Part shown: piece after piece, positions 3,370 through 26,469 of the stretch
Layout of the letters: each line of letters begins with the position of its first letter
How positions within the stretch are numbered: position 1 is the first letter of the stretch
Source of the DNA: an uncultured Methanosarcinales archaeon
Lineage (GTDB): Archaea; Nanobdellota; Nanobdellia; Woesearchaeales; CAZZGN01
Reading direction: 5' to 3'
NCBI GenBank assembly: GCA_964654165.1
Contig: CAZZGN010000002.1
Span: 1 to 35,112, forward strand
DNA: 35,112 nt
Translations under genes and position numbers: made by a program
Notes under the pieces: generated by a model
Databases searched by the model: none
The model's input: the letters and a program-made list of their open reading frames with translations, nothing else
What the model was told of the DNA's origin: nothing

Positions 3370-3388
3370 TCGCAAATGTTATATAGGA
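3370..3388 (+). promoter_or_regulatory. variant copy of the recurrent promoter-like motif (TCGCAAATGTTATATAGGA)
   Basis: It shares TCGCAAATGTTATA with the 25455 copy. It lies upstream of the 3425 ORF and 31 nt upstream of an alternative ATG at 3408. Confidence 0.45.
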
Positions 3389-3424
3389 GAAACATCATTA
3401 ATAGAAAATGGGTGTATTTGAACA

Positions 3425-3667
3425 ATGTCAATTGATGAAGATGTCTCAACTTTCTGTTGTGGCGATGGATTTGTATGTGAAGAAGATCTTAAATGGGACT
3501 CCAGGAAAGAATATATTGAAAAATTTCAGCACACCTATAATCCAGCACATTTATACTGCCGCTTAAAAGAATGCGGTCTTGATGATGAGAATGTTAAAGC
3601 ACTTTGTAAGGTTTATGATTATGAAGTTTACCAGGTGATTATTGCTAATTTTAGAGAAAGGGTATGA
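3425..3667 (+). CDS. Cys-rich hypothetical protein
   Basis: 80-aa ORF with protein-like composition (FCCGDGFVCEED...CRLKECG...). No SD. The start is ambiguous with the overlapping 3408 ORF. Confidence 0.45.
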   Translation: MSIDEDVSTFCCGDGFVCEEDLKWDSRKEYIEKFQHTYNPAHLYCRLKECGLDDENVKALCKVYDYEVYQVIIANFRERV

Positions 3668-3751
3668 TCAAGTTTGTTTGGATATTTGTTGAGTTTGCCC
3701 TCAATTTATTCTAAATAAGGTTTGGTCATACCCCTCTTTGCTTATTTTTTT
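3660..3751 (+). terminator. long-stem structure plus T7 tract (transcription terminator candidate)
   Basis: An 11-bp stem pairs GGGTATGATCA (3660-3670) with TGGTCATACCC (3723-3733, one G-U). It encloses an inner hairpin TTGAG (3689-3693)/CTCAA (3700-3704). T7 follows at 3745-3751. Confidence 0.5.
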
Positions 3752-3758
3752 AGAAACA

Positions 3759-3766
3759 TTTATATA
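3759..3766 (+). promoter_or_regulatory. TATA-box-like element TTTATATA for the RHH gene
   Basis: The TTTATATA centre lies about 30 nt upstream of ATG 3793 and no SD is present. This spacing suggests a leaderless or near-leaderless mRNA. Confidence 0.5.
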
Positions 3767-3767
3767 G

Positions 3768-3794
3768 TTGTTATATTGGTTATATTTGTTATAT
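3768..3794 (+). repeat. three tandem 9-bp repeats (TNGTTATAT), candidate operator
   Basis: GTTATAT occurs at 3770-3776, 3779-3785 and 3788-3794, with an exact 9-bp period. The repeats lie between the TATA element and the RHH gene, and the last overlaps its ATG. Confidence 0.55.
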
Positions 3795-3987
3795 GGGCAG
3801 ACAAAACGAATATACAACTGTAAGAATCAAAACAAAAGATAGGGATAGGATTGCTTCTAAAGGAAAAAAGTCAGAAAGTTTTGATGAAATAATAGAGCGA
3901 ATACTTGATTATAATGATAAATGCATCAAACAAAAAACAAGGGAAGAAAGTATTTCAAAAGATGGCGATGGTGTTGGATCAACTTAA
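3793..3987 (+). CDS. ribbon-helix-helix (CopG/Arc-like) transcriptional regulator
   Basis: 64 aa. An N-terminal beta-strand (TTVRIK) is followed by two helices (KDRDRIASKG..., SFDEIIERILDY), the typical RHH layout. Confidence 0.6.
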   Translation: MGRQNEYTTVRIKTKDRDRIASKGKKSESFDEIIERILDYNDKCIKQKTREESISKDGDGVGST

Positions 3988-4097
3988 GTGCGAAATGTAA
4001 AAATCCTTTTGTAGCAAAAAGCAAAAGGTCATTGAGGGTTTGTCCGGCGTGTGATAAGTTATTAAAGTCTATCGGTTTAACGATATGGAGGTACAAA

Positions 4098-4658
4098 ATG
4101 GAAGGAAAAAAAGAAGAAAACAAACTTTATGAAGAGAAATTTGAGTGGCTTAATTCAAAAGAGTGTAAGGTTACTCATGAAGTGAAGGAGCCAATAAAAA
4201 ATAAGCATGGAAAGACTGTTGGTTTTAATACTAATGAAACGTCTTTTGTTGGCAGTTATGAAGAGATGGAAGAAGCTTTGCATAATCGTGAGTTTAGTAG
4301 GGATAAAGTTCTTAAGCAGCACCAACTTGAGGAAGCCAGATTGGAGAAGTTAGGTAAGAAGCCAATGAAAACACCTGAGATGGTAAGGCTTGAAAAGAAT
4401 TTGGTGGCTCTTGGAACTATTAAGAATCTTTCTCAGGCTGAAGATAAATTGAAGCATTGGAAAGTACAGTTGGATCAGGAGAATTCTTTTTTGGAAGCAA
4501 GGAAGAAAACTTTAGCTGCATGTCCTGCAGATGGAGAAGAACCTAAAGAAGAAGAACATCCAAAAAATCCGGATGGATCTAAAGGTGGAAATAGGCCAAC
4601 AACCGATGAGGAAAAGGCAGAGGCAGAAGCTAACAATGAACTTAATACAGGCAATTAA
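4098..4658 (+). CDS. hypothetical coiled-coil protein
   Basis: The ORF track begins at 3921 and overlaps the RHH gene. I prefer ATG 4098 with GGAGG 6 nt upstream. The protein is charged and coiled-coil-like with an acidic C-terminus. Confidence 0.5.
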   Translation: MEGKKEENKLYEEKFEWLNSKECKVTHEVKEPIKNKHGKTVGFNTNETSFVGSYEEMEEALHNREFSRDKVLKQHQLEEARLEKLGKKPMKTPEMVRLEKNLVALGTIKNLSQAEDKLKHWKVQLDQENSFLEARKKTLAACPADGEEPKEEEHPKNPDGSKGGNRPTTDEEKAEAEANNELNTGN

Positions 4659-4689
4659 GTCTTTTTTTGTTAAAGTCCAGGATATTATA

Positions 4690-5088: not shown

Positions 5089-5091
5089 AAA

Positions 5092-5238
5092 ATGGTAGAT
5101 ATAAAATCAATAAATAGGTGGGCTAAGTGGCTTATTGACAGGATTGAGTGTGTGACTTCAATACAACAGATGGAGATCACACCAACAAAAACACACTTAA
5201 TATTTGTGATAGAAGATGGAAAAAGAAAAAAAGATTGA
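5092..5238 (+). CDS. small hypothetical protein (48 aa)
   Basis: Hand-translated MVDIKSINRWAKWLIDRIECVTSIQQMEITPTKTHLIFVIEDGKRKKD. It fills an otherwise empty gap and overlaps the next gene by 23 nt. Confidence 0.3.
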   Translation: MVDIKSINRWAKWLIDRIECVTSIQQMEITPTKTHLIFVIEDGKRKKD

Positions 5239-5821
5239 AATAAAAGAAGTAAGTTTGGATAAGTTACAAGAGGATTCAACAAATCCAAATCGTATGACAA
5301 CAGAAAAGTTTGAATCATTAAAAAAAGGAATACAAAAATATGGGTTCTTAGTTCCAGTTATTACAAATAAAGATTACTTGATTGCAGATGGTCATCATAG
5401 GTTTAGGGCAGCAAGAGATCTTGGATATGAAAAGATTCCAGTTGTTGCTTTGGATGTTTCAAATGTTGATAGAATAATGCTTAGGCAAGTAATGAACAAG
5501 CTTCGAGGAGAGCATAATTTAATGAAAGATATTGATGATTTCGAAAAAATAATGAGTGACAAAGGAGACTTGAAAGAGTTTGCAGATCTTATGGGACAAC
5601 AACAAGATTTCTTTAGGGATGTGATCAAACTTAAAGATGAAGAAATGGAGCATTACATTGTTGTAAGGGATTATAATAAAGAGATCAATAGTCCGCAACA
5701 AGTTAAGCAGCTTAAACTTAAACTTACAGAAGATCAGAAAATTACAATAAAACAGAAGTTTCAAACACAAGAAAACCTTTTAGGGATAACAGATTACTTT
5801 ATAGTTTTGGAGGAAGAATGA
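5216..5821 (+). CDS. ParB-like nuclease-domain protein
   Basis: 201 aa. NPNRMTTEKFESLKKGIQKYGFLVPVI...IADGHHRFRAARDLGYEKIPVV carries the DGHHR-type ParB/Srx motif. The stop overlaps the methyltransferase start (ATGA). Confidence 0.7.
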   Translation: MEKEKKIEIKEVSLDKLQEDSTNPNRMTTEKFESLKKGIQKYGFLVPVITNKDYLIADGHHRFRAARDLGYEKIPVVALDVSNVDRIMLRQVMNKLRGEHNLMKDIDDFEKIMSDKGDLKEFADLMGQQQDFFRDVIKLKDEEMEHYIVVRDYNKEINSPQQVKQLKLKLTEDQKITIKQKFQTQENLLGITDYFIVLEEE

Positions 5822-6729
5822 AATTTGTAGATCTTTTTAGTGGGGCAGGAGGATTAAGTCTTGGTTTTAAAAAAGAAGGATTTAAAAGCCAGGGATTTGT
5901 AGAATTTTGGCAGCCAGCAATTGAAACAATGCTTAACAATGATCCTGAAGAAAAACTTATTCTTAAAGATATCACCGAAGTAACTAAAAAACATTTCACC
6001 TCAAACACTGATGTGGTGGTCGGAGGGCCACCATGTCAAGGTTTTAGTATGGCTGGGAAAAGAGAAGTTGGGGATAACAGAAATAGTTTGTTTGAATATT
6101 ATTTTAAGGTTGTTGATTATACGCAACCAAAGTTTTGTCTTATGGAAAATGTGCGAGGGATCCTTTCAATGAAAGATGTTGATGGAAAACTAATCATAAA
6201 CAAAATAATTTCTGCATTTAAAGATAAGGGTTATAGGACAGATATTAAATTGTTGAATAGTTTTAATTATTGTGTTCCTCAGAAAAGGCAAAGAATTATT
6301 ATTATAGCAAACAAAGAAGGAATTAAGTTTGATTTTCCTGAACCAAGATCAAAAATGTTTCTAAAAGAAGTTTTAACACTTCCTTATGAAGAACTGCCAG
6401 AGATACAGCATATTTATACTAAGAAAAAAATGCTTATGAAGAAAGGATTTTATATGAAACCAGGACAGAAGATTAGTAGTTTTGGAAGTGCAGGAATTAA
6501 GTTAAGATGGAGTCATGCACCAACGATTACTAAGACTGGGAGGTATATTCATCCAGGGTTTAATAGGTTGATAAGTGTTCGTGAAGCTGCAAGGATCCAG
6601 ACGTTTCCGGATGATTATATGTTTTCTGGAAATATTGATCAGAAGTATGGTCAGATTGGGAATGCTGTTCCTGTTAATATGGCGAGAGCACTTGCAGGAC
6701 AAATAAAAAAGAATATTGGAGATGATTAA
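5818..6729 (+). CDS. DNA (cytosine-5)-methyltransferase
   Basis: All the hallmark motifs appear in order: DLFSGAGGLSLGF (I), GGPPCQGFS (IV), ENVRG (VI), QKRQR (VIII), REAARIQTFPD (IX) and GNAVPV (X). Confidence 0.92.
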   Translation: MKFVDLFSGAGGLSLGFKKEGFKSQGFVEFWQPAIETMLNNDPEEKLILKDITEVTKKHFTSNTDVVVGGPPCQGFSMAGKREVGDNRNSLFEYYFKVVDYTQPKFCLMENVRGILSMKDVDGKLIINKIISAFKDKGYRTDIKLLNSFNYCVPQKRQRIIIIANKEGIKFDFPEPRSKMFLKEVLTLPYEELPEIQHIYTKKKMLMKKGFYMKPGQKISSFGSAGIKLRWSHAPTITKTGRYIHPGFNRLISVREAARIQTFPDDYMFSGNIDQKYGQIGNAVPVNMARALAGQIKKNIGDD

Positions 6730-6731
6730 AA

Positions 6732-6902: not shown

Positions 6903-6921
6903 AACATTGGAGATGGTGTAA

Positions 6922-7571: not shown

Positions 7572-7714
7572 AAATGATAGAATGCGAGAATTGTGGGGCA
7601 AGATTTGAGGATTTCAGTAATGATTTTGAATGTACTGATTCAGGAGAAGAGATTTGTCCTTCGTGCCAAAAATGTACATTAATACATAATTTTCCAGAGG
7701 GAGTTTCACCATGA
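7568..7714 (+). CDS. mini zinc-ribbon protein (48 aa)
   Basis: Hand-translated MKMIECENCGARFEDFSNDFECTDSGEEICPSCQKCTLIHNFPEGVSP. It has CxxC ... CxxC pairs and is coupled to both neighbours by overlaps. Confidence 0.5.
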   Translation: MKMIECENCGARFEDFSNDFECTDSGEEICPSCQKCTLIHNFPEGVSP

Positions 7715-8175
7715 GAGAGATAAAATTCAGAGCATGGGATGGGAAACAAATGATTGAAGAACTTGATTGTCCAGTGTTAAAACCAATTGGTTTGCTTAAT
7801 GAGAATCATAAATTAGTTTTTGGTCATGATGGGCATGATGATTATGTTTATGAAGGAGATGTTGAAGATTTTAAATTGATGCAGTTCACTGGCCTAAAAG
7901 ATAAAGAAGGAAAAGAAATATATGAAGGAGACAAAATAATATTTCCTAACATAAAAAAAAATTCATCAGCGATAATAAGTTTTGGAAAACATACAGATAT
8001 AGCTGAAGCAGGATGCACCACACATTCAAATTATGGTTTTTATTTACAATTTGATGATGGCTCAACTGTAGGACTATTAAATGAAGAATCCTTTTTGGAT
8101 TGGAAGAATATTGAAGTTATTGGAAACATTTATCAAGATCCAGAACTAATCAAAAAAGACTTACCAAAAGATTAA
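7711..8175 (+). CDS. yopX: YopX-family protein
   Basis: The N-terminal MREIKFRAWDGKQM and C-terminal IEVIGNIYQDPELI are characteristic of the YopX family. Confidence 0.7.
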   Translation: MREIKFRAWDGKQMIEELDCPVLKPIGLLNENHKLVFGHDGHDDYVYEGDVEDFKLMQFTGLKDKEGKEIYEGDKIIFPNIKKNSSAIISFGKHTDIAEAGCTTHSNYGFYLQFDDGSTVGLLNEESFLDWKNIEVIGNIYQDPELIKKDLPKD

Positions 8176-8177
8176 CG

Positions 8178-8678
8178 ATGCCTAAAGAATCAAAATTTAA
8201 GGAAAAAGAATGGGAGTATCCAAAGAATAATACTTTCTGGCCTACTCAGCAAAGGAGGAGGAAGCTTAAGGATTTGTCTGAGGAGATTGGTTTGTATAAT
8301 GTTAATTTGACTCAGTTGGCTATGCAGATGGGTATTTCTCGGACCATGATTTATAATGATATTAAGGCTTTGTATAAGCAGGGTTTGGATAAGGATGTTT
8401 TGGCTCAGGCTAAGGTTAATATTGATAGTGCGCATAAGAAGGTTATGAAGGAGATGCAGAAGCTTGTTTTTGATAGTAAGGAGAAGGTTTCTGTTTCTAA
8501 CCGGATTCGTGCTGCTAATACTCTTCTTTCTGCTAATGAGAAGCATACTGATTTTTTGGAAAAGTTTGGTGAGAAGGCTAAGGTTGCTGAGCGTGTTGAG
8601 AGTAAGACTGTTGTGATGTGGGATGATGGTGAAGAAGAGGAAGATGGTGAGGAAAAAGAGGGAGATGATCAACAATGA
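8178..8678 (+). CDS. HTH protein, candidate small terminase subunit
   Basis: 166 aa. It has an HTH-like segment (NLTQLAMQMGISRTMIYNDIKAL), a helical middle region and an acidic tail. It lies in the block upstream of the large terminase, so the call rests on position. Confidence 0.4.
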   Translation: MPKESKFKEKEWEYPKNNTFWPTQQRRRKLKDLSEEIGLYNVNLTQLAMQMGISRTMIYNDIKALYKQGLDKDVLAQAKVNIDSAHKKVMKEMQKLVFDSKEKVSVSNRIRAANTLLSANEKHTDFLEKFGEKAKVAERVESKTVVMWDDGEEEEDGEEKEGDDQQ

Positions 8679-8932: not shown

Positions 8933-9081
8933 AACAAAAAAGATTTGAAAAAGTATTTGGAACAGATAAGTGGAGATGCTTAAAGTGTGGAAAATTAGTA
9001 AAAGAGATGGGTTGGTCAGGTCATTTAAGAAAACATAAAGAAAAGGTTCATCAAGTAAATAAGCATATTGACACTTACTAA
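8929..9081 (+). CDS. C2H2-like mini zinc-finger protein (50 aa)
   Basis: Hand-translated MKQKRFEKVFGTDKWRCLKCGKLVKEMGWSGHLRKHKEKVHQVNKHIDTY. The pattern is CxxC ... HxxxH. ATGA overlaps the upstream gene. Confidence 0.5.
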   Translation: MKQKRFEKVFGTDKWRCLKCGKLVKEMGWSGHLRKHKEKVHQVNKHIDTY

Positions 9082-9088
9082 AATAAAT

Positions 9089-9184
9089 ATGAAATGTAAA
9101 TATTGTTGGGAAGAAATGAGAGAAGGGGGTTTTAAAAAATGTAATAGAAGCCCTGTTGGTTTTTGTATTCCAGAAGGTTTTTAA
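9089..9184 (+). CDS. mini Cys-rich peptide (31 aa)
   Basis: Hand-translated MKCKYCWEEMREGGFKKCNRSPVGFCIPEGF. It has CxxC plus two further Cys and is very short. Confidence 0.3.
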   Translation: MKCKYCWEEMREGGFKKCNRSPVGFCIPEGF

Positions 9185-9310
9185 ATGAGGGCTAACGATA
9201 TTGATCATGTAGTGATTGATGTCTGGAGTAAGTCCGGAGAACACAAAAGAATAGATACAAAGAATTATAGTGAGGCTTGCAGGTGGTTAAGGCTTGCAAG
9301 TTTTGAATGA
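9185..9310 (+). CDS. small hypothetical protein (41 aa)
   Basis: Hand-translated MRANDIDHVVIDVWSKSGEHKRIDTKNYSEACRWLRLASFE. It starts immediately after the previous stop. Confidence 0.3.
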   Translation: MRANDIDHVVIDVWSKSGEHKRIDTKNYSEACRWLRLASFE

Positions 9311-9382
9311 AATATTATGTTCACCAAGCTGAAAATGGGTGTTGAAACTGATTGGTTTTTCATAGGGCCAATCGCCTCTTTT

Positions 9383-9452
9383 CCCCTGGCATTATACACA
9401 TTCGGGTGTTACGAAGGATCAGCGTCTTAACGCTTTTTTGCCAGGGTTTTTT
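9383..9452 (+). terminator. nested stem-loops each followed by T6 (terminator candidate for the upstream operon)
   Basis: The outer stem pairs CCCTGGCA (9384-9391) with TGCCAGGG (9439-9446) and is followed by TTTTTT. The inner hairpin AGCGT-CTTA-ACGCT (9421-9434) is also followed by TTTTTT. The large outer loop is atypical of simple intrinsic terminators. Confidence 0.4.
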
Positions 9453-9525
9453 ATAATCTTGAAAAAACAGATATCACATGGGGTTGATAACCATGAGTGT
9501 CGGGTGAGAATCCCTACGTCATATT

Positions 9526-9562
9526 CATGGGGATGGAAGTATGGATCATGGAAATCCATGGA
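9526..9562 (+). repeat. cluster of four direct ATGGA repeats within a CATGG/CCATG-rich stretch
   Basis: ATGGA occurs at 9533, 9541, 9548 and 9558. CATGG occurs at 9477, 9526, 9547, 9557 and 9715, and CCATG at 9491, 9556 and 9748. That is 8 pentamer hits in about 280 nt, where I estimate well under 1 by chance. Confidence 0.5.
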
Positions 9563-9812
9563 TTATATGTAAACCGGAAGACATAACTTGAGTATGTCTC
9601 AAAGCAATTTTGTGAAAATCAAAACAGTAACTTGCTGCTGCAGGGAACATAAGTGTAATCTGATGAAGATCTTTGCAGGTTCGAAATTGGCATTAAAAGC
9701 GTAGAGCATTGTGGCATGGCACAACAGTTAGGGGTTGCAAACCCTCACCATGTAATCGATATCGTAAAAGCCATCGAAAATCCTGCCCATCCCATTATAA
9801 TTAAAGAAGAGA

Positions 9813-9986: not shown

Positions 9987-11264
9987 ATGGCGATACTCAA
10001 AATACCTTACAAACCACACAAAGGACAAAAGAAATTCCATCAAAGTAAAGCTAAATTCAGAGGATTATTAACAGGAGTAGCATACGGAAAAACCGCAGCA
10101 GGAGCAAACGAAATACTCAAGATGGCCGTGAAGTACCCTAAAAGTAAATTCTTAGTAATGGCCCCAAACAGCAAGATCCTTAATCATGCAACACTTCCTG
10201 AAATATATAAATGGGGAAGAAAACTAATTGTTTCTGAAACAAAATCTAAAAACACTATTCACATTCTTGGAGGAGGAACAATTATTTATCTTACTGCAGA
10301 TAACATGCGGCACGTTGACAGACTTAGAGGAATGACAATTGGAGGTTTCTGGCTTGATGAAGCAAGCTTATTTCTCAGAATGGTTTGGGCAGTTATTCTT
10401 GCAAGACTAAGATGTAATCATGGACCTCTTAAGGGAGTTATCACAACTACTCCTAAAGGATTTAATTGGCTGTACTGGTATTTTGTTAAAGGAACTAATC
10501 CAGTTAATAAAAAGAAATTACGTAATGCGGATAGTTATTGGTGGATAGGTGGGACAACGCATGATAACCCTTATACTCCTGAAGAATTTAAGCAGACTTT
10601 GATGGATGATTATACAGGAATATTTAAGAGACAAGAGATTTATGGTGAGTTCACAGGATTTGAAGGCCAGGTATATCCGCAGTTCAAACATAATACTCAT
10701 ATCTTGGAAAAGTATCCTGAACCTGGAAGGATTAGGGATGTTATTGCAGGAGTTGATTGGGGGTTCACTAATCCGATGGCAGGTTTGATTATAGGGTTTG
10801 ATAATGATGGGCGTTCTTATGTGCTTGAAGAGTTTTATAGGACTGGCCAGAAAGTAAGTAATTTGATTGATTGGTTGCATGAACAAAAAGAAAAGTATCC
10901 ACTTCTTAGAAGAGTTTATGCAGATCCTGCAGAGCCGCAGTTCATTATGGAAGTTAATGAAGCAAGGTATGAGTGTATTGCTGCAGATAATAGTGTCCTC
11001 CCTGGGATCAATAAAGTTTATGATTATGTTGAGATTGCAGGTGATGGACTTCCAAGGTTGTTTGTTATGAAACATTGCCAGGGAACTATTGATGAGTTCA
11101 GTACTTATCATTTTCCGGAAAGTAAGGATGGTGTTCCTAAGCAAGATAAGCCTTTGAAAGTTGATGATCACTGCATGGATGCGTTAAGATATGCTCTTAA
11201 ATCTCATGCTTATGGCAAAAAGTCTCACACAATTCTTAGTGATAAGGATGGTTCAATATTATAG
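9987..11264 (+). CDS. terL: terminase large subunit
   Basis: 425 aa. It has a Walker A-like GVAYGKTAAG and Walker B-like FWLDEAS. The RNase H-like nuclease motifs are GVDWGFTNPMAG, VYADPAEPQFI and DDHCMDALRYAL. Confidence 0.92.
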   Translation: MAILKIPYKPHKGQKKFHQSKAKFRGLLTGVAYGKTAAGANEILKMAVKYPKSKFLVMAPNSKILNHATLPEIYKWGRKLIVSETKSKNTIHILGGGTIIYLTADNMRHVDRLRGMTIGGFWLDEASLFLRMVWAVILARLRCNHGPLKGVITTTPKGFNWLYWYFVKGTNPVNKKKLRNADSYWWIGGTTHDNPYTPEEFKQTLMDDYTGIFKRQEIYGEFTGFEGQVYPQFKHNTHILEKYPEPGRIRDVIAGVDWGFTNPMAGLIIGFDNDGRSYVLEEFYRTGQKVSNLIDWLHEQKEKYPLLRRVYADPAEPQFIMEVNEARYECIAADNSVLPGINKVYDYVEIAGDGLPRLFVMKHCQGTIDEFSTYHFPESKDGVPKQDKPLKVDDHCMDALRYALKSHAYGKKSHTILSDKDGSIL

Positions 11265-11270
11265 AAATAT

Positions 11271-11289
11271 CCGATAATGTTATAAATGA
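11271..11289 (+). promoter_or_regulatory. recurrent promoter-like motif CCGATAATGTTATAAATGA
   Basis: One of six copies of the motif. TTATAAAT starts 39 nt upstream of the portal ATG, and no SD is present. Confidence 0.55.
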
Positions 11290-11317
11290 CAATCATTATT
11301 AAATTAGATTAGACACG

Positions 11318-13654
11318 ATGGGGATCTTCAAAACTTTTAAAACAAGGATGGGTAAGCTTAATCCTTATGCTAATATAGCGACGTTATCTAAACAATTACA
11401 ACTTAACCAGGTGGCTATGGATGGTTTACTTCGTCCTGGAAGCGGAGGAAACAGAGGTTATGAAGGTAGTACTTTTGTTGTTCCAAGATATCCTCTTCCT
11501 TTAGAAACATTGTATGATGTTGCTTATAATTCTGATACTTTGTCTACAATTCATTTTGCGCTTAAGCTTGAATGTTTCAGGAATGGTTTTGAACTTTTGG
11601 AAGCTGATTCAACTGATAGTGATACCATGACTTCTGAAGATGATGTTAAGACAAATAATGAGTATATGAATGGTGTTCTTGAAAGGCTTGATAATGTTAA
11701 TGAGAACGGACAGAGTAATCTTGATGTTCATGAAGAGCTTGAAGATGACTGGAATATTATGGATGATATTTTTAAGTTTTACTTATTTGATTACAAATTT
11801 AATTCTGCAGGAGAAATTAGTGATTATGATCTAAGAGAAATGATGCGGATGGATCCTAAATATATGGGTCTTGTCATGAATTACCAGGACAGGCCAGGCT
11901 ATGATGATAAAAGTAATATCCTTACTGTTTGTCCAGATCATAGGAACGCGCTTTTAACAAATACTGAACTATGCCCTCAGTGTAACAAAATGACTTATAA
12001 AGCTTATTACAGGCATTTGTACCGTGGAGATGCTCTGTACTATTTCAAGCATGAAGTTTATCATAAGAGCAGGTACAGGAAAAGTAAAAGATTAGGTTTC
12101 AGTCCGATAATTACTGTTTGGCAAAAGAATGCAACTCTTTGGAAACAGGATAAATATATTCTTGAAATGTATACTAAGGAAAGGCCACCAAAAAGTGCTT
12201 TATTCTTTAAGACTTCTAATGTTGAAAGTTTAAAAGCTGCATGGGAAGAAGCTAAAGTTAATGCTAACGCAAACCCTCATCACCCTGTTGTCATGGCAAT
12301 ACAGAGTAGCGGTATTAAAGGTGAGCAAGGTAAGTTTGTTGAGTTTGTAGATTTCATGAGAAGCCTTGATGATTTGCAATTCACTGAACAAAGAGAAGAG
12401 TATAGGAGAACAATTGGCGCAGTCTATGGAGTTCTCCCAATTTGGCAAGCAGACACGTCAACCAGTGGCGGCCTAAATAATGAAGGTATGCAGATCACAG
12501 TTACTAATCGTAGGATCCAGGCTAACCAGTCAGGGCATGATGATATTTTTAAGAATGATCTTAAAGCAATGAAAGTTGAAGGATTAGTTTTAAAACTTAA
12601 ACCTTCTGAAGAACAGGATGAAATGGCTAAGCTTGACAGACAACAGAAAAGTCTTGAGATTGGTGAGAAGGCTGCAGAGCTTGGTCTTGAAGTTGTTTAT
12701 GTTGAAGATACTGATGAGGTTAAGATCCATCCAGGAACTATTGAAGCACGTTCTCCAATATCTGGCTTCCCGGGTATTCCACAAAATTCTAACTCTTTTG
12801 ATTCACCCCCAACAAACGAAGGAGATGTTGATAATTCTGGAACACCCGAGGAGCCTTCTTTTAATAAAGCTGATAAACAAAAAAAAAAGCCAAATTTAGG
12901 AAATAGGGCTAATTTCACTACCTTTTCTAAGACTCTTGAAGAAAATGTTGATATATTCTTAAAGAAATTTAAGCGTAAACCTTCAAGTTTTGAGATGTCT
13001 AAAATGATTAAAGAGATTGACAAAAATCTTTATGACAGTCTGAAGAGTTCTGTTGGTTTAAGTTTTGATAAAGTTTATAAGGATCAGATGGATTTTGTTG
13101 GTAAAGATCTTGGAGTGAATATTGTTTTTGGTCAGGTTGATGTTAATGCTTTGGAAGCTTTGAAGAACCAGGATGTTTTAAGTAAGGCTTTTAAGGATTT
13201 GTCTAATGATGTTGTTTCTAAATTGAATCTTATTTTGAATGAGAGTTATGCTAATCCTGCAGAGTTGACTGTTGCGAAGATTACTGAAAAGATTAAGGAT
13301 GTTGCTGATGTTACAGATTATCGTGCAGAGAATATTGCAAGGACTGAACTTGGTAAAGTTGCAAGTGCTGCTCGAAGGAATAGTTATAAGAAAGAAGATT
13401 CTGAGAATGAGTTTAATTATTTATGGATTGGACCAAATGATCATAGAACTACTTCGACAAGTAAAAGAATTAAGAAGCGTGTTGGTAAGGGAGTTAAGTG
13501 GCAGAAATTAATTAATATTATTGAGGAGGAGTCTATTAAAGATTTTCCTAAGTGGGTAGTTGATAAGAATTTTCCAGTTAGTCATTATCAGTCGAGACAT
13601 ATATTCCTTAGAACTCAAGGTTCTTTAAAAGATAATATATTTTTTAAAACTTAA
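11318..13654 (+). CDS. portal protein with C-terminal MuF/SPP1 gp7-like head-morphogenesis domain
   Basis: 778 aa, directly downstream of terL. The C-terminal ENIARTELGKVASAARRNSY...NYLWIGPNDHRTTSTSKRI resembles Mu F-type domains. There is an internal CPDH...CPQC knuckle. Confidence 0.72.
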   Translation: MGIFKTFKTRMGKLNPYANIATLSKQLQLNQVAMDGLLRPGSGGNRGYEGSTFVVPRYPLPLETLYDVAYNSDTLSTIHFALKLECFRNGFELLEADSTDSDTMTSEDDVKTNNEYMNGVLERLDNVNENGQSNLDVHEELEDDWNIMDDIFKFYLFDYKFNSAGEISDYDLREMMRMDPKYMGLVMNYQDRPGYDDKSNILTVCPDHRNALLTNTELCPQCNKMTYKAYYRHLYRGDALYYFKHEVYHKSRYRKSKRLGFSPIITVWQKNATLWKQDKYILEMYTKERPPKSALFFKTSNVESLKAAWEEAKVNANANPHHPVVMAIQSSGIKGEQGKFVEFVDFMRSLDDLQFTEQREEYRRTIGAVYGVLPIWQADTSTSGGLNNEGMQITVTNRRIQANQSGHDDIFKNDLKAMKVEGLVLKLKPSEEQDEMAKLDRQQKSLEIGEKAAELGLEVVYVEDTDEVKIHPGTIEARSPISGFPGIPQNSNSFDSPPTNEGDVDNSGTPEEPSFNKADKQKKKPNLGNRANFTTFSKTLEENVDIFLKKFKRKPSSFEMSKMIKEIDKNLYDSLKSSVGLSFDKVYKDQMDFVGKDLGVNIVFGQVDVNALEALKNQDVLSKAFKDLSNDVVSKLNLILNESYANPAELTVAKITEKIKDVADVTDYRAENIARTELGKVASAARRNSYKKEDSENEFNYLWIGPNDHRTTSTSKRIKKRVGKGVKWQKLINIIEEESIKDFPKWVVDKNFPVSHYQSRHIFLRTQGSLKDNIFFKT

Positions 13655-13692
13655 GTATGGATTATTGTTTTCCATTTTAGATCACCTATTTA

Positions 13693-13737
13693 GGACTTAG
13701 TGGGTTTATTCTTTTTCCTGCTAAGTTCTTTTTTTTT
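13693..13737 (+). terminator. hairpin plus T9 terminator
   Basis: An 8-bp stem pairs GGACTTAG (13693-13700) with CTAAGTTC (13721-13728, one G-U). T9 follows at 13729-13737. Confidence 0.6.
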
Positions 13738-13753
13738 CGATAATGTTATAAAC
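13738..13753 (+). promoter_or_regulatory. recurrent promoter-like motif CGATAATGTTATAAAC
   Basis: It abuts the terminator T-tract. TTATAAA starts 31 nt upstream of ATG 13777, and no SD is present. Confidence 0.55.
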
Positions 13754-13776
13754 GAATTCTATTATAATAAAATATT

Positions 13777-14190
13777 ATGGCAACAGCAGAACAACAATTA
13801 TTAAGCGCAGTTGATAAATTCATGGATGATATTGCAGATAGAATTTTTGAACTTAGCCAATTAACTCTTATTGATGAAAACAAAACTGATAGTTCAACAA
13901 TGTTTAAAACCGCAAATGTTGTAAGAAAACCTTTTGAGAAAACAATTGTTTATCCTGCACCTTATTCTGATGTTATCGAGTTTGGAAGAAATCCAGGAAG
14001 TCCAGTTTATAGTAAATGGTTACATAAATGGGTTGAAAGAAAGCTTGGAATTACTGATCCTAAAAGGATTAAGAGTGTGAGTTTTGCAATTGCAAAGAGT
14101 ATACAAGAAAGAGGATTGCAAGCAACTAATTTTTTGACTAATGCTGCTTTTAAAGCAAGGAGTGAAATGGAGAGTGGAATAAATGAATGA
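13777..14190 (+). CDS. hypothetical head/neck-associated protein (weak HK97 gp10-like resemblance)
   Basis: 137 aa. YPAPYSDVIEFGRNPGSP resembles the ..YA.YVEFGT.. signature of gp10-family proteins. It sits between the portal and protease genes. Confidence 0.45.
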   Translation: MATAEQQLLSAVDKFMDDIADRIFELSQLTLIDENKTDSSTMFKTANVVRKPFEKTIVYPAPYSDVIEFGRNPGSPVYSKWLHKWVERKLGITDPKRIKSVSFAIAKSIQERGLQATNFLTNAAFKARSEMESGINE

Positions 14191-15552: not shown

Positions 15553-16680
15553 ATGGTAGACTTTAACAATATGGACAATCTTTTACAACATTATTATGGT
15601 GGGTTTGGTGTAAAAAAAGATGCACCAGTTCTTACTACAACAACAGGCGTTTATAACCCAGTGTTTGGAGCTTTCGCATTTAATCAGATAAATATGGAAG
15701 CAAATGCATTTGCGTTATTGCCTAAATATCCATGGCCGCATTCAGGATTTAGAGCTATCACAGCAGATCCTTCAAGTTCAGATTATGGAGCAGTAGCAGA
15801 AAACGGAAATATTCCTGCAACTATTAAGCCAACATTTGCAGAAATTACAGTGACCACAAAGCAAGTAGTTCATTCTTTTGATGTTTCATACATCCAAGAG
15901 GGTAAAGTGAATAAGTCAGCTGATGATGCAATTGGAGATATGGAATTCTTAAGAGGTTACTTTGCAACATTCCACGGAAAGGATATTAACCGTCAGATTT
16001 TGATTGATGGAGATACTCTTGCAACAAACAAATTTGAAAGTATTGATAGGGTAACCGCATCAAGTGCTTATGCAACAGCAGTTGGATGGACAGCAGGAGA
16101 TGAAGATATCTATGGAATCGACAGAAGTGGAGCAGCATGGGCAGATGCTTATGTAAACCATAATTCTGGAGTTGACAGATTCTTAACTGATGAGATCATC
16201 AGGACAAGTTTTTCAAATCTTGAAACAAATGGTGCTGCAACTAATTTAATGTTGACAGGAAATGACACTAAATGGAAGATCTTTGGTATTTACGAAAACC
16301 AAGTAAGATATCAAGGAGTTCTCCAAAAGAATGTTGGTTTTACTATTGGTATTAACGGTGTTGAAACTGATGGTGGAATGGGAGCAGGTGTTCGAGTAGC
16401 AACTGTTTACGGTACACCTTTGTTCAGCACTCAGAGTGCAGCGCAAGATACAATTTCAAGAATTTATATGCTTGACACAACTGAAGAAGCAGGAAGTGGA
16501 CGGCCAAGACTTGGAATCTCACTTATGTATCCGACACTTTACTTTGAAAGCGGAATGAGTGCAGCAAATCCTAATCCGTTTGCGATTGGAAGATTTGGAA
16601 CTGAAGGAGTTTATTATACAGCAGGAGAATTGGTGTGTACTTTTTTAGCAGCACAAGGATCTATAAGAGATCTTAAGTAG
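15553..16680 (+). CDS. major capsid protein (HK97-fold inferred)
   Basis: 375 aa with a strong GGAGGA RBS, immediately after the prohead protease. It is Gly/Ala-rich and codon usage suggests high expression. The call rests on position and size. Confidence 0.72.
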   Translation: MVDFNNMDNLLQHYYGGFGVKKDAPVLTTTTGVYNPVFGAFAFNQINMEANAFALLPKYPWPHSGFRAITADPSSSDYGAVAENGNIPATIKPTFAEITVTTKQVVHSFDVSYIQEGKVNKSADDAIGDMEFLRGYFATFHGKDINRQILIDGDTLATNKFESIDRVTASSAYATAVGWTAGDEDIYGIDRSGAAWADAYVNHNSGVDRFLTDEIIRTSFSNLETNGAATNLMLTGNDTKWKIFGIYENQVRYQGVLQKNVGFTIGINGVETDGGMGAGVRVATVYGTPLFSTQSAAQDTISRIYMLDTTEEAGSGRPRLGISLMYPTLYFESGMSAANPNPFAIGRFGTEGVYYTAGELVCTFLAAQGSIRDLK

Positions 16681-22036: not shown

Positions 22037-22044
22037 GTGAAATA

Positions 22045-24762
22045 ATGAAATGGCAACAAGTAGCAATAATTCTTGTAACCTTACTAATCAGTGGGGGTGT
22101 TGTTACTTATACAGATCTTTTTGGAGCATTATTTCAATTATCAGGAATGGATTATAGTTTTACTGGAGATCAATCTTGCGGTACTGAATGTGAAAGTTAT
22201 ATTAATGTAACTTCTTCTTACTGGCGTGTTTGTTTTGAACATTCAAAAGATACTCAAAATATTTATATCCCTGGAAAAGTTGTTCTTAATAAGACAACGA
22301 TTGCAGAAGCACCAAACACGGTGTTGTTTAAGAAAAGTACTCGTGGAAGAACTCTATGGGTCAATATGAATAATGTAAATAATGTTGTGACAACAGAACC
22401 AGAAGTTGATGTTGACTGGCTTGTTCCAACAGTTAAAAGATATAGTACAAATAAAGATTCTATTGGTTACTGGAGACCTCTTAAAGATGGCGATTGTTGG
22501 GAACGCGGGGAGATCAATAAAATAAAACTTATAGGTCACAAACCAGAAGGATTAACAGTTAAATGGAGTTTTTTAATGGAAGACAAAATTGATATTGATC
22601 CAGTATGGACAGGAACAAATCTTTATAATAACATTGTATTTTATGCACCTCTTGATGGGGTATATAAAGATTATTATGGTCTTGGATATCCTACTGTTTT
22701 AAATTCTGTTTTCAATAAATCAGTTCTTTATGAAGGATCATATTTTAATCAAGATGGAAGTTTAGAATATACAGATACAGGACCAATGAATACTCAAGAT
22801 GATGTTTCCATTAAGGCTTGGATTAATCTTGCAGAAAGGCAAGCTACTAATATGGGTATTGCAGGAAAAATATCAAGTTCACCATCATACTCTTATGGTA
22901 TGTTAAAAGATTCAGGTCATGATATTAGATGTAGGTGGACAACTGGTGCAGGAAATCAGAATTGTATTGCACCTGGAACATCAGAACCAGTAGTTGGTAA
23001 TTGGGAGATGTGGGTATGTGTTTTTAATGAAACATCTAATTTAGTTATGATTTACAAGAATGGGATACAAGTAAAAAATTGTTCAACAGCGACAAGAACT
23101 ATCACTGGGGGAAATTTCTTTATTGGTTCCATGGATACATCAAACAGGTTTAATGGTACTATTGATGAAGTATATGTGTTTAATGTTTCATTGTCTAAAG
23201 AAGAAATTGGAGATTTATATTATAGAACTTTGAATGGTTCAAGTTTTGGAAAAGATTTAACTTATTATATGAATAATTCTGGGAATGATGCAAATACTGG
23301 ATTGACTCCAGATGCACCATTAAAATCTCAGGGAGAAGTTAATAATCGTCGTTACGTTCAAGGATATAATATTGTATATAATCGTGGTGATGAATGGAGA
23401 TTAACAACTGATGATTATTTTGATCCTCAAGATGGAGATAACTATACTAATACAACTTATGGAGTTTATGGTACTGGACCTAAACCCGTCTTTTATGGAA
23501 GTTATGAAGCAAATGGTGCAGGAAACTGGACTCTGACAGGAGATGCTAACATATACAAATATGTAGGTACCTTAACTACTGATGCAGGAAATATAATATT
23601 TAATAATCAACCAGGACTTAATGGTAGAAAAAACAATACTTTTGCAGGTCTTGATACGAATCTTGATTTCTGGTATAACTCAACTGGAAACAATGTGAAA
23701 TTATATTATGATGTTGGTAATCCTGGAAATGTGTTTGATGATATTGAAATTGCTGTTGAGGTAGGGATATTTTTTGCACTTGATAAAAAGTATATCAAAA
23801 TAAGTAATCATAGTTATAAATATAGTGGTCAACATGGTATAAATTTTGCAGAATCAAGTCCGCATTATGTATATGATTGTAATTTCTTTTATATTGGTGG
23901 TGCTTACCAAACAGGAGATACAAGGTATGGTAATTGTTATCAGAGTCTTAGAACTGTTGATAGAGTTCATGTAAAAGGAAATAATGCTTCTTGGTGTTAT
24001 GATGCAGGATTTAGTCCTCAAAGTCCAAGTGCTCCAGGAGACCATAATATTACAAATGTGTTATATGAATATAATATTGCAGATCATTGTATTTATGGAA
24101 TTGAATATTTTAGTTCAAGTGCTGGAAGTATAACTGAAAATATTACTTTTGCACATAATACTCTTGTTGATAGTGTTCAGGTTTTTGGATGGAGTCATAG
24201 ATTAGGTCAAGCAATAAGGGCTTCTGCAAGTCCTTTACTTACTTCAAATTTTGTAATTAGAGATAACATATTTGATAATTCAACTAATTGGACTGTGGGT
24301 GTAGGTTATAATGCTGATTGGAATGGAGAACCACCATTATTATTAAACAATTTTTGGAGCAGAAATCCTGTTACTACTGTGTTTTATAATTATACTAAAT
24401 ATTCAGATCTTACAGCATTTAGGGTAGATTATCCAGATCAAACTATTGATAGTATTGAACAAGATATAAATTTTGTTAATAGAAACTTGTATGATTATAG
24501 GCCAGTAAATAGTAGTTCTGCTTGTGTTAATGGGAGTGATGGAAAAACTATTGGTGCTTTACCTTGTGCAAGTTCTTCATGTACTTATCCTGGAAGTGGG
24601 GATCATACTTATTTTGGATTAGATCATTGTGTTATTCCAAGTGTTGTGGATCATTTAAAGAATAATGTTTTTGTTGTTGGTCCTGGAAGTTTAACAGGAT
24701 GGAAATTTATAATGAATTATACTTATGCAAACATAAATAATCAAGTGAAGGTGACAAGCTAA
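22045..24762 (+). CDS. membrane-anchored LamG (concanavalin-like) plus beta-helix domain protein
   Basis: I prefer ATG 22045 over the track start 21988. The N-terminal hydrophobic anchor is MKWQQVAIILVTLLISGGVV. The LamG signature is ...WEMWVCVFN...IYKNG...FFIGS...FNGTIDEVYVFNVSLSKEEIGDLY. A beta-helix-like C-terminal half follows NNSGNDANTGLTPDAPLKS. Confidence 0.68.
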   Translation: MKWQQVAIILVTLLISGGVVTYTDLFGALFQLSGMDYSFTGDQSCGTECESYINVTSSYWRVCFEHSKDTQNIYIPGKVVLNKTTIAEAPNTVLFKKSTRGRTLWVNMNNVNNVVTTEPEVDVDWLVPTVKRYSTNKDSIGYWRPLKDGDCWERGEINKIKLIGHKPEGLTVKWSFLMEDKIDIDPVWTGTNLYNNIVFYAPLDGVYKDYYGLGYPTVLNSVFNKSVLYEGSYFNQDGSLEYTDTGPMNTQDDVSIKAWINLAERQATNMGIAGKISSSPSYSYGMLKDSGHDIRCRWTTGAGNQNCIAPGTSEPVVGNWEMWVCVFNETSNLVMIYKNGIQVKNCSTATRTITGGNFFIGSMDTSNRFNGTIDEVYVFNVSLSKEEIGDLYYRTLNGSSFGKDLTYYMNNSGNDANTGLTPDAPLKSQGEVNNRRYVQGYNIVYNRGDEWRLTTDDYFDPQDGDNYTNTTYGVYGTGPKPVFYGSYEANGAGNWTLTGDANIYKYVGTLTTDAGNIIFNNQPGLNGRKNNTFAGLDTNLDFWYNSTGNNVKLYYDVGNPGNVFDDIEIAVEVGIFFALDKKYIKISNHSYKYSGQHGINFAESSPHYVYDCNFFYIGGAYQTGDTRYGNCYQSLRTVDRVHVKGNNASWCYDAGFSPQSPSAPGDHNITNVLYEYNIADHCIYGIEYFSSSAGSITENITFAHNTLVDSVQVFGWSHRLGQAIRASASPLLTSNFVIRDNIFDNSTNWTVGVGYNADWNGEPPLLLNNFWSRNPVTTVFYNYTKYSDLTAFRVDYPDQTIDSIEQDINFVNRNLYDYRPVNSSSACVNGSDGKTIGALPCASSSCTYPGSGDHTYFGLDHCVIPSVVDHLKNNVFVVGPGSLTGWKFIMNYTYANINNQVKVTS

Positions 24763-25454
24763 TGAATCGAAGAAACTTTATTAAACTGGCTGGACTTGGA
24801 GCAATTGCTATTGCAACTCCTGGATGCGGAAGATACATAGTTGAAACAGTTAGGGATCAGTTAAGAAAAGATTACGAATTTTTGTTCAGTCTGGGTAAGC
24901 ATATTGAAGTTTGTGAGATGAGAATAGGTCAAAGGTCTGCAAAGGGTTGTGGAATAGTTGTTGATGGTATGTATCGGACAATGGAACATATCGGAAGGGT
25001 CAGAGTTAATCAGATGTTTCCAATTTTTGAAAATGTAGATATCTATTTGAAGGGTGTAAAAGCTGAACTTATTGGAATGGAAAAAAGTAATGATACTGCT
25101 CTTTATGAGCTTCCTAAATATAAAACTATTCCTGGAGGAAGGGTTGCACTTCACTTTGAAGAGTTTCCTCTGGATAGAAGTGATGATTATCATCTTGGTC
25201 AGCTCGTGGGATGTGTTGGAAGTCCAGCAATGGATGGAATAAGGGTAATGCAGGGACGAATCACTGATCTTGATGGTTGGAGCGGTAAGAAAGGTAATGT
25301 TGGTACTGACATGAATTATATTGGGGGAGATTCAGCGGGTGCTATGGTTGGTTTAGAAGATAGAGTTCTTCTTGGACAGAATAGTTTTAACCTGGCAGAC
25401 AAGCAAGGATACTTTATTAAACAGGATGAATGGGAAAAGTTATATAGAAATTAA
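24762..25454 (+). CDS. trypsin-like serine peptidase with twin-arginine signal and lipobox-like cysteine
   Basis: 230 aa. The N-terminus MNRRNFIKLAGLGAIAIATPGCG has the Tat RRxFxK motif, an h-region and a Cys. The candidate triad is His76 (TMEHIG), Asp111 (NDTALYEL) and Ser191 (GGDSAGA). A TAATG overlap couples it to the upstream gene. Confidence 0.68.
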   Translation: MNRRNFIKLAGLGAIAIATPGCGRYIVETVRDQLRKDYEFLFSLGKHIEVCEMRIGQRSAKGCGIVVDGMYRTMEHIGRVRVNQMFPIFENVDIYLKGVKAELIGMEKSNDTALYELPKYKTIPGGRVALHFEEFPLDRSDDYHLGQLVGCVGSPAMDGIRVMQGRITDLDGWSGKKGNVGTDMNYIGGDSAGAMVGLEDRVLLGQNSFNLADKQGYFIKQDEWEKLYRN

Positions 25455-25476
25455 TCGCAAATGTTATAAATAAGAA
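25455..25476 (+). promoter_or_regulatory. recurrent promoter-like motif TCGCAAATGTTATAAATAAGAA
   Basis: It starts 1 nt after the upstream stop. TTATAAAT starts 32 nt upstream of ATG 25496, and no SD is present. Confidence 0.55.
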
Positions 25477-25495
25477 AAATAATTAAATATATAAA

Positions 25496-26401
25496 ATGGG
25501 ACTTGAGCCACAACAAGATACAAAAACTATAAGTGCTTCTAATATGACTGGAGCATCCGGATCTTTAAATCGAGTTTATACTCTTGATACTTCTGATAGT
25601 ATTTCTGAACAGTTTAATCTTAAGCTTAATGGCGCAATATACCAACCTGATGTACATTTCACTAAATCAGGTGATGATGTGACATTTTTGATTGAAGTTT
25701 TTGATGGCCAACCTTTAACTATTGATTACTGGACGAGAACAGAAGGACCAAGTATTGGAGTAACTTATTGTACTGCTTCAGATGTTCAAAGAGTTATGCA
25801 GGTTAAGTTTGATTTTGCAACAGATACTTTTCCTTCTCTTGCACAGGTTAATAAATGGATCAATTGGGCTGAAGCAAAGATTGATATTGAAACTAAACAT
25901 GCCTGGCGAGAAGTAACTATTGAAGAACAGTATTATGATTTCCCGAAAAAAGAAAATTATGTTCGTCGTGAAGGATTAAGAATTAAGTTATTGCATAGGA
26001 GAATAAAAGAGTTTGATACAAGTGAAGGGGATAAGCTTGAAGTCTGGAATGGCCAGGAATGGGAAGATTGGATCACTGCTAAGACTGAAGGAAGAGCTGA
26101 TGATTTCTGGGTTGATTATAGGGATGGAGTGATGTATTTAAGGTTTGTTTATCCTTTTTATTTTCATAGAACTAAGGCTGTTAGAATGACTTATCGTTTT
26201 GGTGAGACAATTGTTCCAGGGGATATTAGTGATGCAGCTGCAATGCTTGTTGCAAGCAAAGTAGTTTTAAGTGACGATTATAGTCAGGTTCTTTCTGATA
26301 CAGGGGATCCTTCTCAGATGAATCATGATAGTCGAGCCACTCGTTGGAAGAATGAGGCTAATGAGACTATTTTGGATCATGTAGAGATTGTTAGTGTCTA
26401 A
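25496..26401 (+). CDS. head-tail adaptor (connector) protein with N-terminal extension
   Basis: 301 aa. The central YCTASDVQRVM...FPSLAQVNKWINWAEAKID resembles gp6/gp15-type head-tail connector signatures. It is the first gene of the neck/tail block. Confidence 0.5.
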   Translation: MGLEPQQDTKTISASNMTGASGSLNRVYTLDTSDSISEQFNLKLNGAIYQPDVHFTKSGDDVTFLIEVFDGQPLTIDYWTRTEGPSIGVTYCTASDVQRVMQVKFDFATDTFPSLAQVNKWINWAEAKIDIETKHAWREVTIEEQYYDFPKKENYVRREGLRIKLLHRRIKEFDTSEGDKLEVWNGQEWEDWITAKTEGRADDFWVDYRDGVMYLRFVYPFYFHRTKAVRMTYRFGETIVPGDISDAAAMLVASKVVLSDDYSQVLSDTGDPSQMNHDSRATRWKNEANETILDHVEIVSV

Positions 26402-26414
26402 TTCTTTATTAATG

Positions 26415-26442
26415 ACCAAATTGTTAAGGTTAACAAATTGGT
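26415..26442 (+). terminator. near-perfect inverted repeat (hairpin) after the adaptor gene
   Basis: ACCAAATTGTTAA/TTAACAAATTGGT forms a 13-position stem with one mismatch. There is no clear T-tract, so it may act as an attenuator or stabiliser rather than a terminator. Confidence 0.35.
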
Positions 26443-26446
26443 ATTT

Positions 26447-26469
26447 GCCGATAATGTTATAAATAAGAA
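26447..26469 (+). promoter_or_regulatory. recurrent promoter-like motif GCCGATAATGTTATAAATAAGAA
   Basis: It is an exact 23-nt match to the copy at 14930-14952. It lies 44 nt upstream of ATG 26513. Confidence 0.5.

Follow-up and report, generated by a model that had tools for sequence, protein, structure and literature searches.

A repeated, probable archaeal core promoter heads structural gene modules in a tailed virus linked to a DPANN archaeon

Introduction

Why would a virus repeat almost the same 20 nt or so six times on one strand of its genome, and which transcription machinery would read them? The question is raised by contig CAZZGN010000002.1 of NCBI GenBank assembly GCA_964654165.1, a 35,112-nt stretch of DNA titled as coming from an uncultured Methanosarcinales archaeon and placed by GTDB in the Woesearchaeales, which carries six copies of a promoter-like word, most of them ahead of structural genes of a tailed virus. 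This stretch (hereafter the window, with positions counted from its first letter) is the whole of contig C2 in a 1.4-Mb, 213-contig genome bin (G000). An earlier note, made from the sequence alone, had read the word as an archaeal transcription factor B (TFB) recognition element (BRE) followed by a TATA box and spaced for leaderless transcripts, and had kept a bacterial extended -10 element as an alternative, leaving the domain of the host open.

The archaeal core promoter combines a BRE with a TATA box, transcription starts about 24-27 nt past the centre of the box, and leaderless mRNAs occur, as known from Thermococcus, Methanocaldococcus, Haloferax and Saccharolobus. To our knowledge, transcription has never been studied in viruses of DPANN archaea, and a literature search, which was not exhaustive, found no description of a promoter or leaderless profile for a DPANN archaeon. 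Here, we set the viral copies against the promoters of the putative host's own genes and against the corresponding positions in related viral genomes, and we argue that they are very probably archaeal-type core promoters used by the TATA-binding protein (TBP), TFB and RNA polymerase of the host.

Results

One word, six copies, one strand

A search of the window with the pattern YCGMWAATGTTATAAATAAGAA, allowing up to three mismatches, returned five sites, all on the + strand: 3370-3391 (copy 1), 11271-11292 (copy 2), 14931-14952 (copy 4), 25455-25476 (copy 5) and 26448-26469 (copy 6). A further + strand copy, (T)CGATAATGTTATAAACGAATTC at 13737/13738 (copy 3), has its first 16 bases in common with the word, and the pattern had no match in 100 dinucleotide-preserving shuffles. 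The six same-strand copies of the earlier note were thus recovered, with two of the positions originally given (14930 and 26447) each one base too low. Across the whole bin, the 15-nt core CGMWAATGTTATAAA (up to one mismatch) occurred six times on C2 and once elsewhere, there with one mismatch and inside an open reading frame (ORF). The 10-mer TGTTATAAAT was not enriched by itself (12 matches against 10 +/- 3 expected), and the signal therefore resides in the full word of about 20 nt. Rfam and tRNA scans of the window found nothing, so that the copies belong to no known RNA.

The lone copy outside C2, TGATAATGTTATAAA, lies on the reverse strand of contig C126 (3305 nt) at 1108-1122, within an 88-codon ORF and with no start downstream, and we set it aside as probably due to chance. 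C126 is itself small and carries short genes of a viral or plasmid-like kind, one of them with a Sak/Rad52-like N-terminus by eye; the contig could be a fragment that strayed from this element or from a different one.

Each of the copies falls at a promoter-like position. Five come after a stop codon (at 3356, 11264 and 25454) or a terminator-like hairpin (ending at 13737 and at about 26447), which bears out the placement at module starts claimed before, and the copy at 14931 lies inside a 451-codon ORF (14183-15538).

A promoter profile computed from the putative host

To obtain a scale for these sites, we derived a profile from the bin minus C2, with host gene starts taken by simple ORF rules. 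The distance from the 8-mers TTTATAAA, TTTATATA and TTTAAATA to the first ORF-opening ATG showed a sharp peak at exactly 30 nt. The iterated profile, built from 183 host promoters, consists of VRAAA (the BRE) at -37..-33, two free positions and TTTATAWA at -30..-23 (ATG = +1); as it was seeded with TATA words, its TATA columns are partly circular, and neither its BRE columns nor the spacing peak is. Host ATGs fell at the modal position in 188 cases, at +1 in 55, at +2 in 33, at +3 in 19 and at -1 in 29, with few beyond. The host's tRNA genes have promoters of the form (R)AAA(G)N-TTTATAAAT(G/A) about 32 nt ahead of the mature 5' end, with TTTATAAAT standing where the virus has GTTATAAAT.

In the bulk of host genes, a G-rich Shine-Dalgarno (SD) signal was seen at -12..-8. 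These patterns indicate that the host would have many leaderless first genes and others led by an SD, the same mix that had been proposed for the virus. The remark that several viral first codons read ATGGG did not carry over as a host feature, as a G at +4 occurs in 36% of host leaderless genes and in 30% of other ATG-opened ORFs. If the Woesearchaeota link discussed below is right, these results amount to a computational profile of promoters and leaderless genes in a DPANN archaeon.

The viral copies fit the host profile in one register

Scored against that profile, each of the six copies fits in one and the same register only, with a BRE of the form CG(A/C)(T/A)A (CGMWA), the spacer AT and the TATA box GTTATA(A/T)A (GTTATAAA), and in this sense the BRE-plus-TATA reading of the earlier note was upheld. 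Their scores of 5.4-9.7 bits place them in the top 0.04-0.15% of host positions. In shifted registers, namely those with TTATAAAT or TATAAATA as the TATA box, the scores drop to 3.1 bits or less; the box originally proposed, TTATAAAT, therefore moves one base to the left, to GTTATAAA, although the distances in the +2 register (28-31 nt) would still lie within the host range. The BREs of the window read CGCAA and CGATA, and those of related viruses AGAAA, CAAAA and CGAAA in the same register.

Three copies have the geometry of the host's leaderless genes, with an ATG offset from the modal position of 0 (3408), +2 (13777) and +3 (25496). Copy 1 (TCGCAAATGTTATATAGGAGAA), the most diverged, has its BRE CGCAA at 3371-3375 and its TATA box GTTATATA at 3378-3385 and scores 7.2 bits, in one register only; ATG 3408, which opens a 52-amino-acid (aa) ORF, lies exactly 30 nt past its first TATA base, giving a predicted leader of 0 nt. 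A second ATG after this copy, at 3425, opens an 80-aa ORF. Copy 3 spans 13737-13758 on the + strand (BRE CGATA at 13738-13742, TATA box GTTATAAA at 13745-13752) and is followed at 32 nt by ATG 13777 of a 137-aa gene, the first of the scaffold-capsid block, with a predicted leaderless-type leader of about 2 nt. Directly ahead of it on the same strand is a terminator-like hairpin at 13692-13737, with a 13-bp stem followed by U9 (-19.7 kcal/mol, z = -3.86; none of 200 shuffles folds as well), which would close the portal transcription unit. Copy 5 (BRE CGCAA at 25456-25460, TATA box at 25463-25470) begins 1 nt past the stop of the ORF at 24762-25454, scores 9.7 bits and lies 33 nt ahead of ATG 25496, with a predicted leader of about 3 nt; the product, of 301 aa, has a weak head-tail adaptor-like match (phrog_17057; phrog_442 connector, weak).

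The other three copies have predicted leaders of about 9, 27 and 36 nt, so that the leaderless spacing proposed for the word as such holds for ATG 3408, 13777 and 25496 (30, 32 and 33 nt) and not for the rest. Copy 2 (BRE at 11272-11276, TATA box at 11279-11286) starts 7 nt past the stop of the large terminase gene, and the ATG of the portal-MuF fusion, at 11318, is 39 nt from its first TATA base, for a leader of about 9 nt. Copy 6 (TATA box at 26456-26463), which comes after a hairpin at about 26410-26447, is 57 nt from ATG 26513 by the same measure (leader of about 27 nt); this ATG opens a 144-aa gene, the first of a neck/tail block that includes the tail tube gene. The longest leader belongs to copy 4, described below. 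We found no SD ahead of ATG 3793, 11318, 13777, 25496 or 26513, and many internal genes carry GGAG(G) or GGTG sites, in line with what had been stated before.

Genome-specific words at orthologous positions

Capsid searches of IMG/VR and metagenomes gave about 40 related loci with a capsid identity of 40-70%, IMGVR_UViG_3300030397_000563 being one of the relatives. In most of the longer relatives, the commonest repeated 10-mers again belong to a TATA-containing word, and about a dozen genome-specific words were seen, among them AAGAAACTGTTATAAATAAG (L098), AAGAAACTGATATAAATAA (L096/97), TAGCAAATGATATAAATAAA (L010), GCAAAAGTCATATAAATAAG (L009), AGACAATCTTATAAATATA (L099), CGAAACACATATAAAT (L123-125), GCGTTATAAA (L012, L103, L119), TAGAAAATTATTTAAAT (L011) and AAAAACTTAAATT (L108/109). 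These words precede orthologues of the same genes: the portal gene, the 137-aa gene, the adaptor-like gene and the 144-aa gene. By the earlier note, the absence of the motif from relatives would have undermined its reading; relatives with capsids 45-70% identical instead have a BRE/TATA word at the same gene positions. In 20 of the 24 orthologues of the 137-aa gene, the position of the TATA box predicts a leader of -1 to +2 nt, while portal orthologues follow their genome's own word with leaders of 1-30 nt and 144-aa orthologues with leaders of 4-57 nt, mostly 32-57 nt. L009, whose complete record spans 38 kb, has five occurrences of its word, all in forward orientation and in the structural region, and neither reverse nor control matches were found.

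Compared over 26 nt, the words have a mean identity of 0.75 within a genome, as against 0.62 when orthologous positions are compared across genomes and 0.58 for non-orthologous ones, a pattern of concerted evolution.

The leaders of the 144-aa orthologues also share the sequence GTGAGTA(A/T)G a few bases ahead of the ATG (L011 6300-6320; L099 13850-13872; L097 5145-5167; L105 16160-16183), and the window has GTATGTATGTGAGAAAATAAA at 26486-26512. This may be a conserved element of the 5' untranslated region or a variant SD.

A copy nested in the scaffold gene

Copy 4 (TATA box at 14939-14946) lies within the ORF at 14183-15538 ahead of the capsid gene. It is followed by the SD GAGGG (14992-14996) and an in-frame ATG at 15005, 66 nt from the first TATA base, with a predicted leader of about 36 nt; a start there would yield a nested, scaffold-like C-terminal protein of 177 aa. 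By its position, copy 4 probably also feeds the capsid gene at 15553. In all 13 relatives checked, the genome's own word recurs inside an ORF of 380-490 codons before the capsid gene (L009 8718-10004, L010 7524-8768, L011 1208-2635 and nine further loci), and it is always like the intergenic copies of that genome. In the same 13, a GGTGAT-type SD and an in-frame ATG follow 39-56 nt downstream of the internal word, for a nested protein of 156-202 aa. Here, coding sequence follows the intergenic word of each genome, which we take as strong evidence from evolution for a cis-acting function of the word, and the arrangement implies a putative nested C-terminal scaffold-like protein that would be transcribed separately.

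Identity of the virus

All long ORFs of the contig are on the + strand, and its G+C content is 34% (33% for the bin). Pfam and PHROG scans assigned, all on this strand, the large terminase (9987-11264), the portal fused to a MuF-like domain (11318-13654), the tail tube (27351-28295), fibre-like proteins with lectin domains (several genes), a C5 DNA methylase (5818-6729), ParB-like proteins (two genes) and YopX (7711-8175); the protein from 15553-16680, likewise on the + strand, is the major capsid protein. The contig is a tailed virus. Its ends do not overlap, and the virus genome is therefore probably not quite complete.

In a tblastn search of 50,697 phage records, the capsid matched only the Haloarcula tailed viruses HCTV-1, HVTV-1 and HCTV-5 (33% identity, E = 1e-43) and one Methanofastidiosa virus, with no match to a bacterial phage; a megablast of 16 kb against the phage records gave no near relatives.

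Pfam and PHROG scans of the small and unknown proteins of the virus found no TFB- or TBP-like protein. A 166-aa helix-turn-helix (HTH) protein at 8178-8678 (HTH_11/HTH_10) is kept in relatives (L009 4153-4657; L010 from 141). The L009 homologue adjoins the large terminase gene, which is why the protein may be a small terminase subunit and why its candidacy as a late activator found no support. In the window, about 1.3 kb, including an ORF-poor stretch at 9081-9812, separates the HTH gene from the terminase gene.

Assignment of the host

In the bin, TBP is present (110 bits) and sigma-70 region 2 was not found. Its elongation factor EF-1alpha is 71-81% identical to those of metagenome-assembled genomes (MAGs) deposited as Woesearchaeota or Nanoarchaeota. 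Together with the restriction of the capsid matches to archaeal tailed viruses, these results settle the host domain, formerly left open, on Archaea: an archaeal host is very likely. More than 130 families, with genomes of 0.6-1.7 Mb, make up the order of the bin, in keeping with DPANN, and a host within the Woesearchaeales is moderately likely, on the strength of binning and of these concordances. Many MAGs titled 'uncultured Methanosarcinales archaeon' (TPA assemblies; L016, L018, L020 and others) are equally close in EF-1alpha, and such titles look like mislabels. A methanogen host was discarded, the bin having no mcrA.

Among 300 genomes of the same order, a second MAG (G107), from a different family, has a capsid gene 60% identical to that of the window, on a contig whose G+C content of 50% is in line with the 49-52% of the MAG. 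No provirus turned up in named genomes when genome contigs were scanned with the capsid protein rather than with a profile. The host link is not itself new, as metagenomic DPANN viruses have already been reported.

A second, canonical promoter class

The best match to the host profile in the window (17.1 bits) is none of the six copies but a canonical host-type promoter at 3745..3772 on the + strand, AGAAAC-AT-TTTATATA. ATG 3793 lies 34 nt past its first TATA base, and the predicted leader is accordingly 4 nt rather than the spacing previously equated with that of the word. This promoter overlaps four GTTATAT direct repeats that run up to ATG 3793, and the ORF opening there (3793-3987) encodes a 64-aa protein with weak ribbon-helix-helix-like matches (DUF7557); the arrangement at 3759-3800 looks like a possible autoregulated operator-promoter. 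A second promoter of this type, TGAAAAG-AT-TTTATATA (34783..34810, + strand; 16.2 bits), lies in the 360-nt non-coding right end. Downstream of it is a perfect 12-bp palindrome, GGATAATTATCC, and the right end (34783-35112) also contains further TATA-like boxes and an SD-led ATG at about 35070 whose frame runs off the contig. From this distribution, the virus seems to have two promoter classes, the six-copy class mainly on structural modules and the canonical TTTATATA class in the non-structural part.

Discussion

A proposed host-read promoter for structural genes

No archaeal virus is known to encode an RNA polymerase, and these viruses rely on the machinery of the host (PMC5569661; bioRxiv 10.64898/2026.09.13.751334). 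We propose that host TFB would read the BRE (CGMWA, -37..-33) and host TBP the TATA box (GTTATAAA, -30..-23), and that the host RNA polymerase would be recruited about 23-25 nt downstream of the box, with transcription starting some 28-33 nt past the first TATA base. The copies would thereby head structural, presumably late, units—the portal; the 137-aa gene with scaffold and capsid; the nested scaffold/capsid unit; the adaptor-like gene; and neck and tail—with one further copy heading the small gene at 3408. For the units at 3408, 13777 and 25496, the predicted mRNAs would start at the AUG or within 3 nt of it and be translated as leaderless messages, as appears to be the case for some 200-300 host genes. 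The remaining mRNAs would carry leaders, of about 9 nt and SD-free for the portal, about 36 nt with the SD GAGGG for the nested scaffold unit and about 27 nt for the tail unit. Hairpins and oligo-U tracts ahead of copies 3 and 6 would end the preceding units.

Several points weigh against this proposal. The start sites are deduced from geometry and the late timing from gene content. The first TATA position is G (C in relatives), where the host has T in 89% of cases and G in about 0%, and the CGATA variant of the BRE has a T at -34, a minority base (12%) in the host, so that the copies are only mid-scoring promoters of the host type. Three of the six are not of the leaderless type. Finally, the link between virus and host rests on binning, together with the capsid relatives and the second MAG; a search of the bin for CRISPR (clustered regularly interspaced short palindromic repeats) arrays found none, and no spacer link between the two is therefore available.

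What keeps the copies alike?

Near-identity of the copies within a genome and divergence of the words between sister genomes mark the copies as one co-regulated class, and the uniformity of the word points to a possible co-regulation of the structural genes. Behind the uniformity there may be a dedicated factor that reads the genome-specific bases, or nothing more than homogenisation with selection for equal strength. A more far-reaching conjecture, which we hold to be doubtful, is that the genome-specific bases co-evolve with a virus-encoded or virus-induced specificity factor, forming a private 'late promoter code' on top of host TBP and TFB; its bases would be the non-consensus G or C with which the TATA box begins, together with 2-3 bases on the upstream and 4-6 on the downstream side of that position. 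If true, such a code would be an archaeal counterpart of the late-promoter specificity of phages, in viruses of DPANN archaea.

A related explanation makes the word mainly the binding site of a virus-encoded or virus-induced regulator that overlaps a core promoter and sets the regulon, be it an activator compensating for the non-consensus G or C at -30 or a repressor with its operator (compare the SSV1 F55 sites and the stoperators of mycobacteriophages). Concerted evolution extends to positions on which the host profile sets no constraint (-32..-29 and -22..-17), nearly all relatives have G or C as the first TATA base where the host has T, and a separate canonical class exists in the non-structural region; moreover, in other archaeal viruses, virus-specific flanks on a common BRE/TATA core have been interpreted as sites for regulators (PMC11065993). 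However, the Pfam and PHROG scans offered no candidate regulator, and the only conserved HTH protein may belong to the terminase; the motif has no clear dyad or direct-repeat structure, and recombination between copies would homogenise them alike. We regard a primarily regulatory word as unlikely, and it would add a layer to the promoter reading rather than replace it.

We consider it very improbable that the copies have no part in transcription and serve instead as module-boundary sequences, as recombination sequences or as signals for packaging or replication. Their position at module boundaries and their homogenisation within a genome, as at possible recombination hot-spots, would suit such a role, but the strict single-strand orientation in both the window and L009, the fit to the host promoter profile in one register, the fixed distance to orthologous start codons (20 of 24 relatives) and the ORF-internal copy with its conserved SD and in-frame ATG (13 of 13 genomes) would not.

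The bacterial alternative, a sigma-70 extended -10 element (TGnTATAAA) in a phage of a low-G+C bacterium misbinned with an archaeal MAG, is hardly credible: TGTTATAAA does fit TGnTATAAT at eight of nine positions, TGnTATAAA also occurs in L010, L096/97 and L098, hairpins with U-runs precede two copies and internal genes use GGAGG-type SDs, but the TG gives way to TC (L009, L099), AC (L123-125) or CG (L012, L103, L119) in sister genomes that all keep the purine/A-rich element 7 nt upstream, a consensus scan found no enrichment of -35/-10 sites (65 against 81 +/- 9 in shuffles) and a -35 box at none of the copies, the capsid matches no bacterial phage among the 50,697 records, the bin has no sigma-70, and an ATG 21-24 nt past the box without an SD suits archaeal leaderless geometry and not a bacterial leader of about 15 nt.

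Implications

With host-read promoters as the favoured explanation, the motif becomes a route, drawn from sequence only, to assigning a family of tailed viruses (about 40 metagenomic relatives) to Archaea without spacers, because its promoter geometry is the one seen at the genes of the putative host itself. It also supplies annotation with a predicted map of transcription units, in which first genes are leaderless, internal genes are led by an SD and the scaffold gene harbours an internal promoter. The genome-specific words, in turn, may provide a handle on late-gene timing in archaeal viruses without an RNA polymerase of their own.

Relation to known systems

As in the archaeal core promoter, the virus has a purine- or A-rich element 7-3 nt upstream of an 8-bp A/T box, in fixed orientation, and start codons at the leaderless distance of the host itself, a host with TBP and without a sigma factor. 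The differences are the G at the first TATA position (C in relatives) in place of T, the near-invariance of some 20 nt among the viral copies, which goes beyond what recognition by TBP and TFB needs, and the fact that the starts given here are predictions.

The nested scaffold unit recalls the C/Nu3 pair of phage lambda, in which an in-frame C-terminal scaffold protein arises from an internal start; in both, an internal in-frame start with its own SD gives the C-terminal portion of a precapsid gene (156-202 aa here). In lambda, however, only a translation start is involved, on the same mRNA, whereas in these viruses a separate promoter within the ORF, conserved in all 13 relatives checked, appears to serve the nested product.

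Promoters of the rudiviruses SIRV1 and SIRV2 reportedly carry a virus-specific element beside the TATA box and are said to be served by the host activator Sta1. The viruses studied here likewise combine a host-type TATA box with a few virus-specific neighbouring bases common to many promoters of one virus. The two cases differ in sequence, in virus morphotype and in host, and an Sta1-type activator is a feature of the SIRV system, no activator being known here.

The closest parallel is offered by the virus-specific consensus sequences around a near-identical BRE/TATA core that have been described for early genes of SIRV2 and for more than 50 other crenarchaeal viruses (PMC11065993, Nat Commun 2024). 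Shared with that class are several near-identical cores per genome, flanks kept within a virus and differing between related viruses, and a core that resembles strong host promoters. In Sulfolobales viruses, that class is found at early, single genes with anti-defence functions; here, it is the structural modules (portal, scaffold/capsid, adaptor-like and tail) of a DPANN-linked tailed virus that are marked, and one copy is, in addition, embedded in coding sequence. With these differences in setting, the copies belong to a known kind, the virus-specific archaeal promoter class, and involve no new mechanism.

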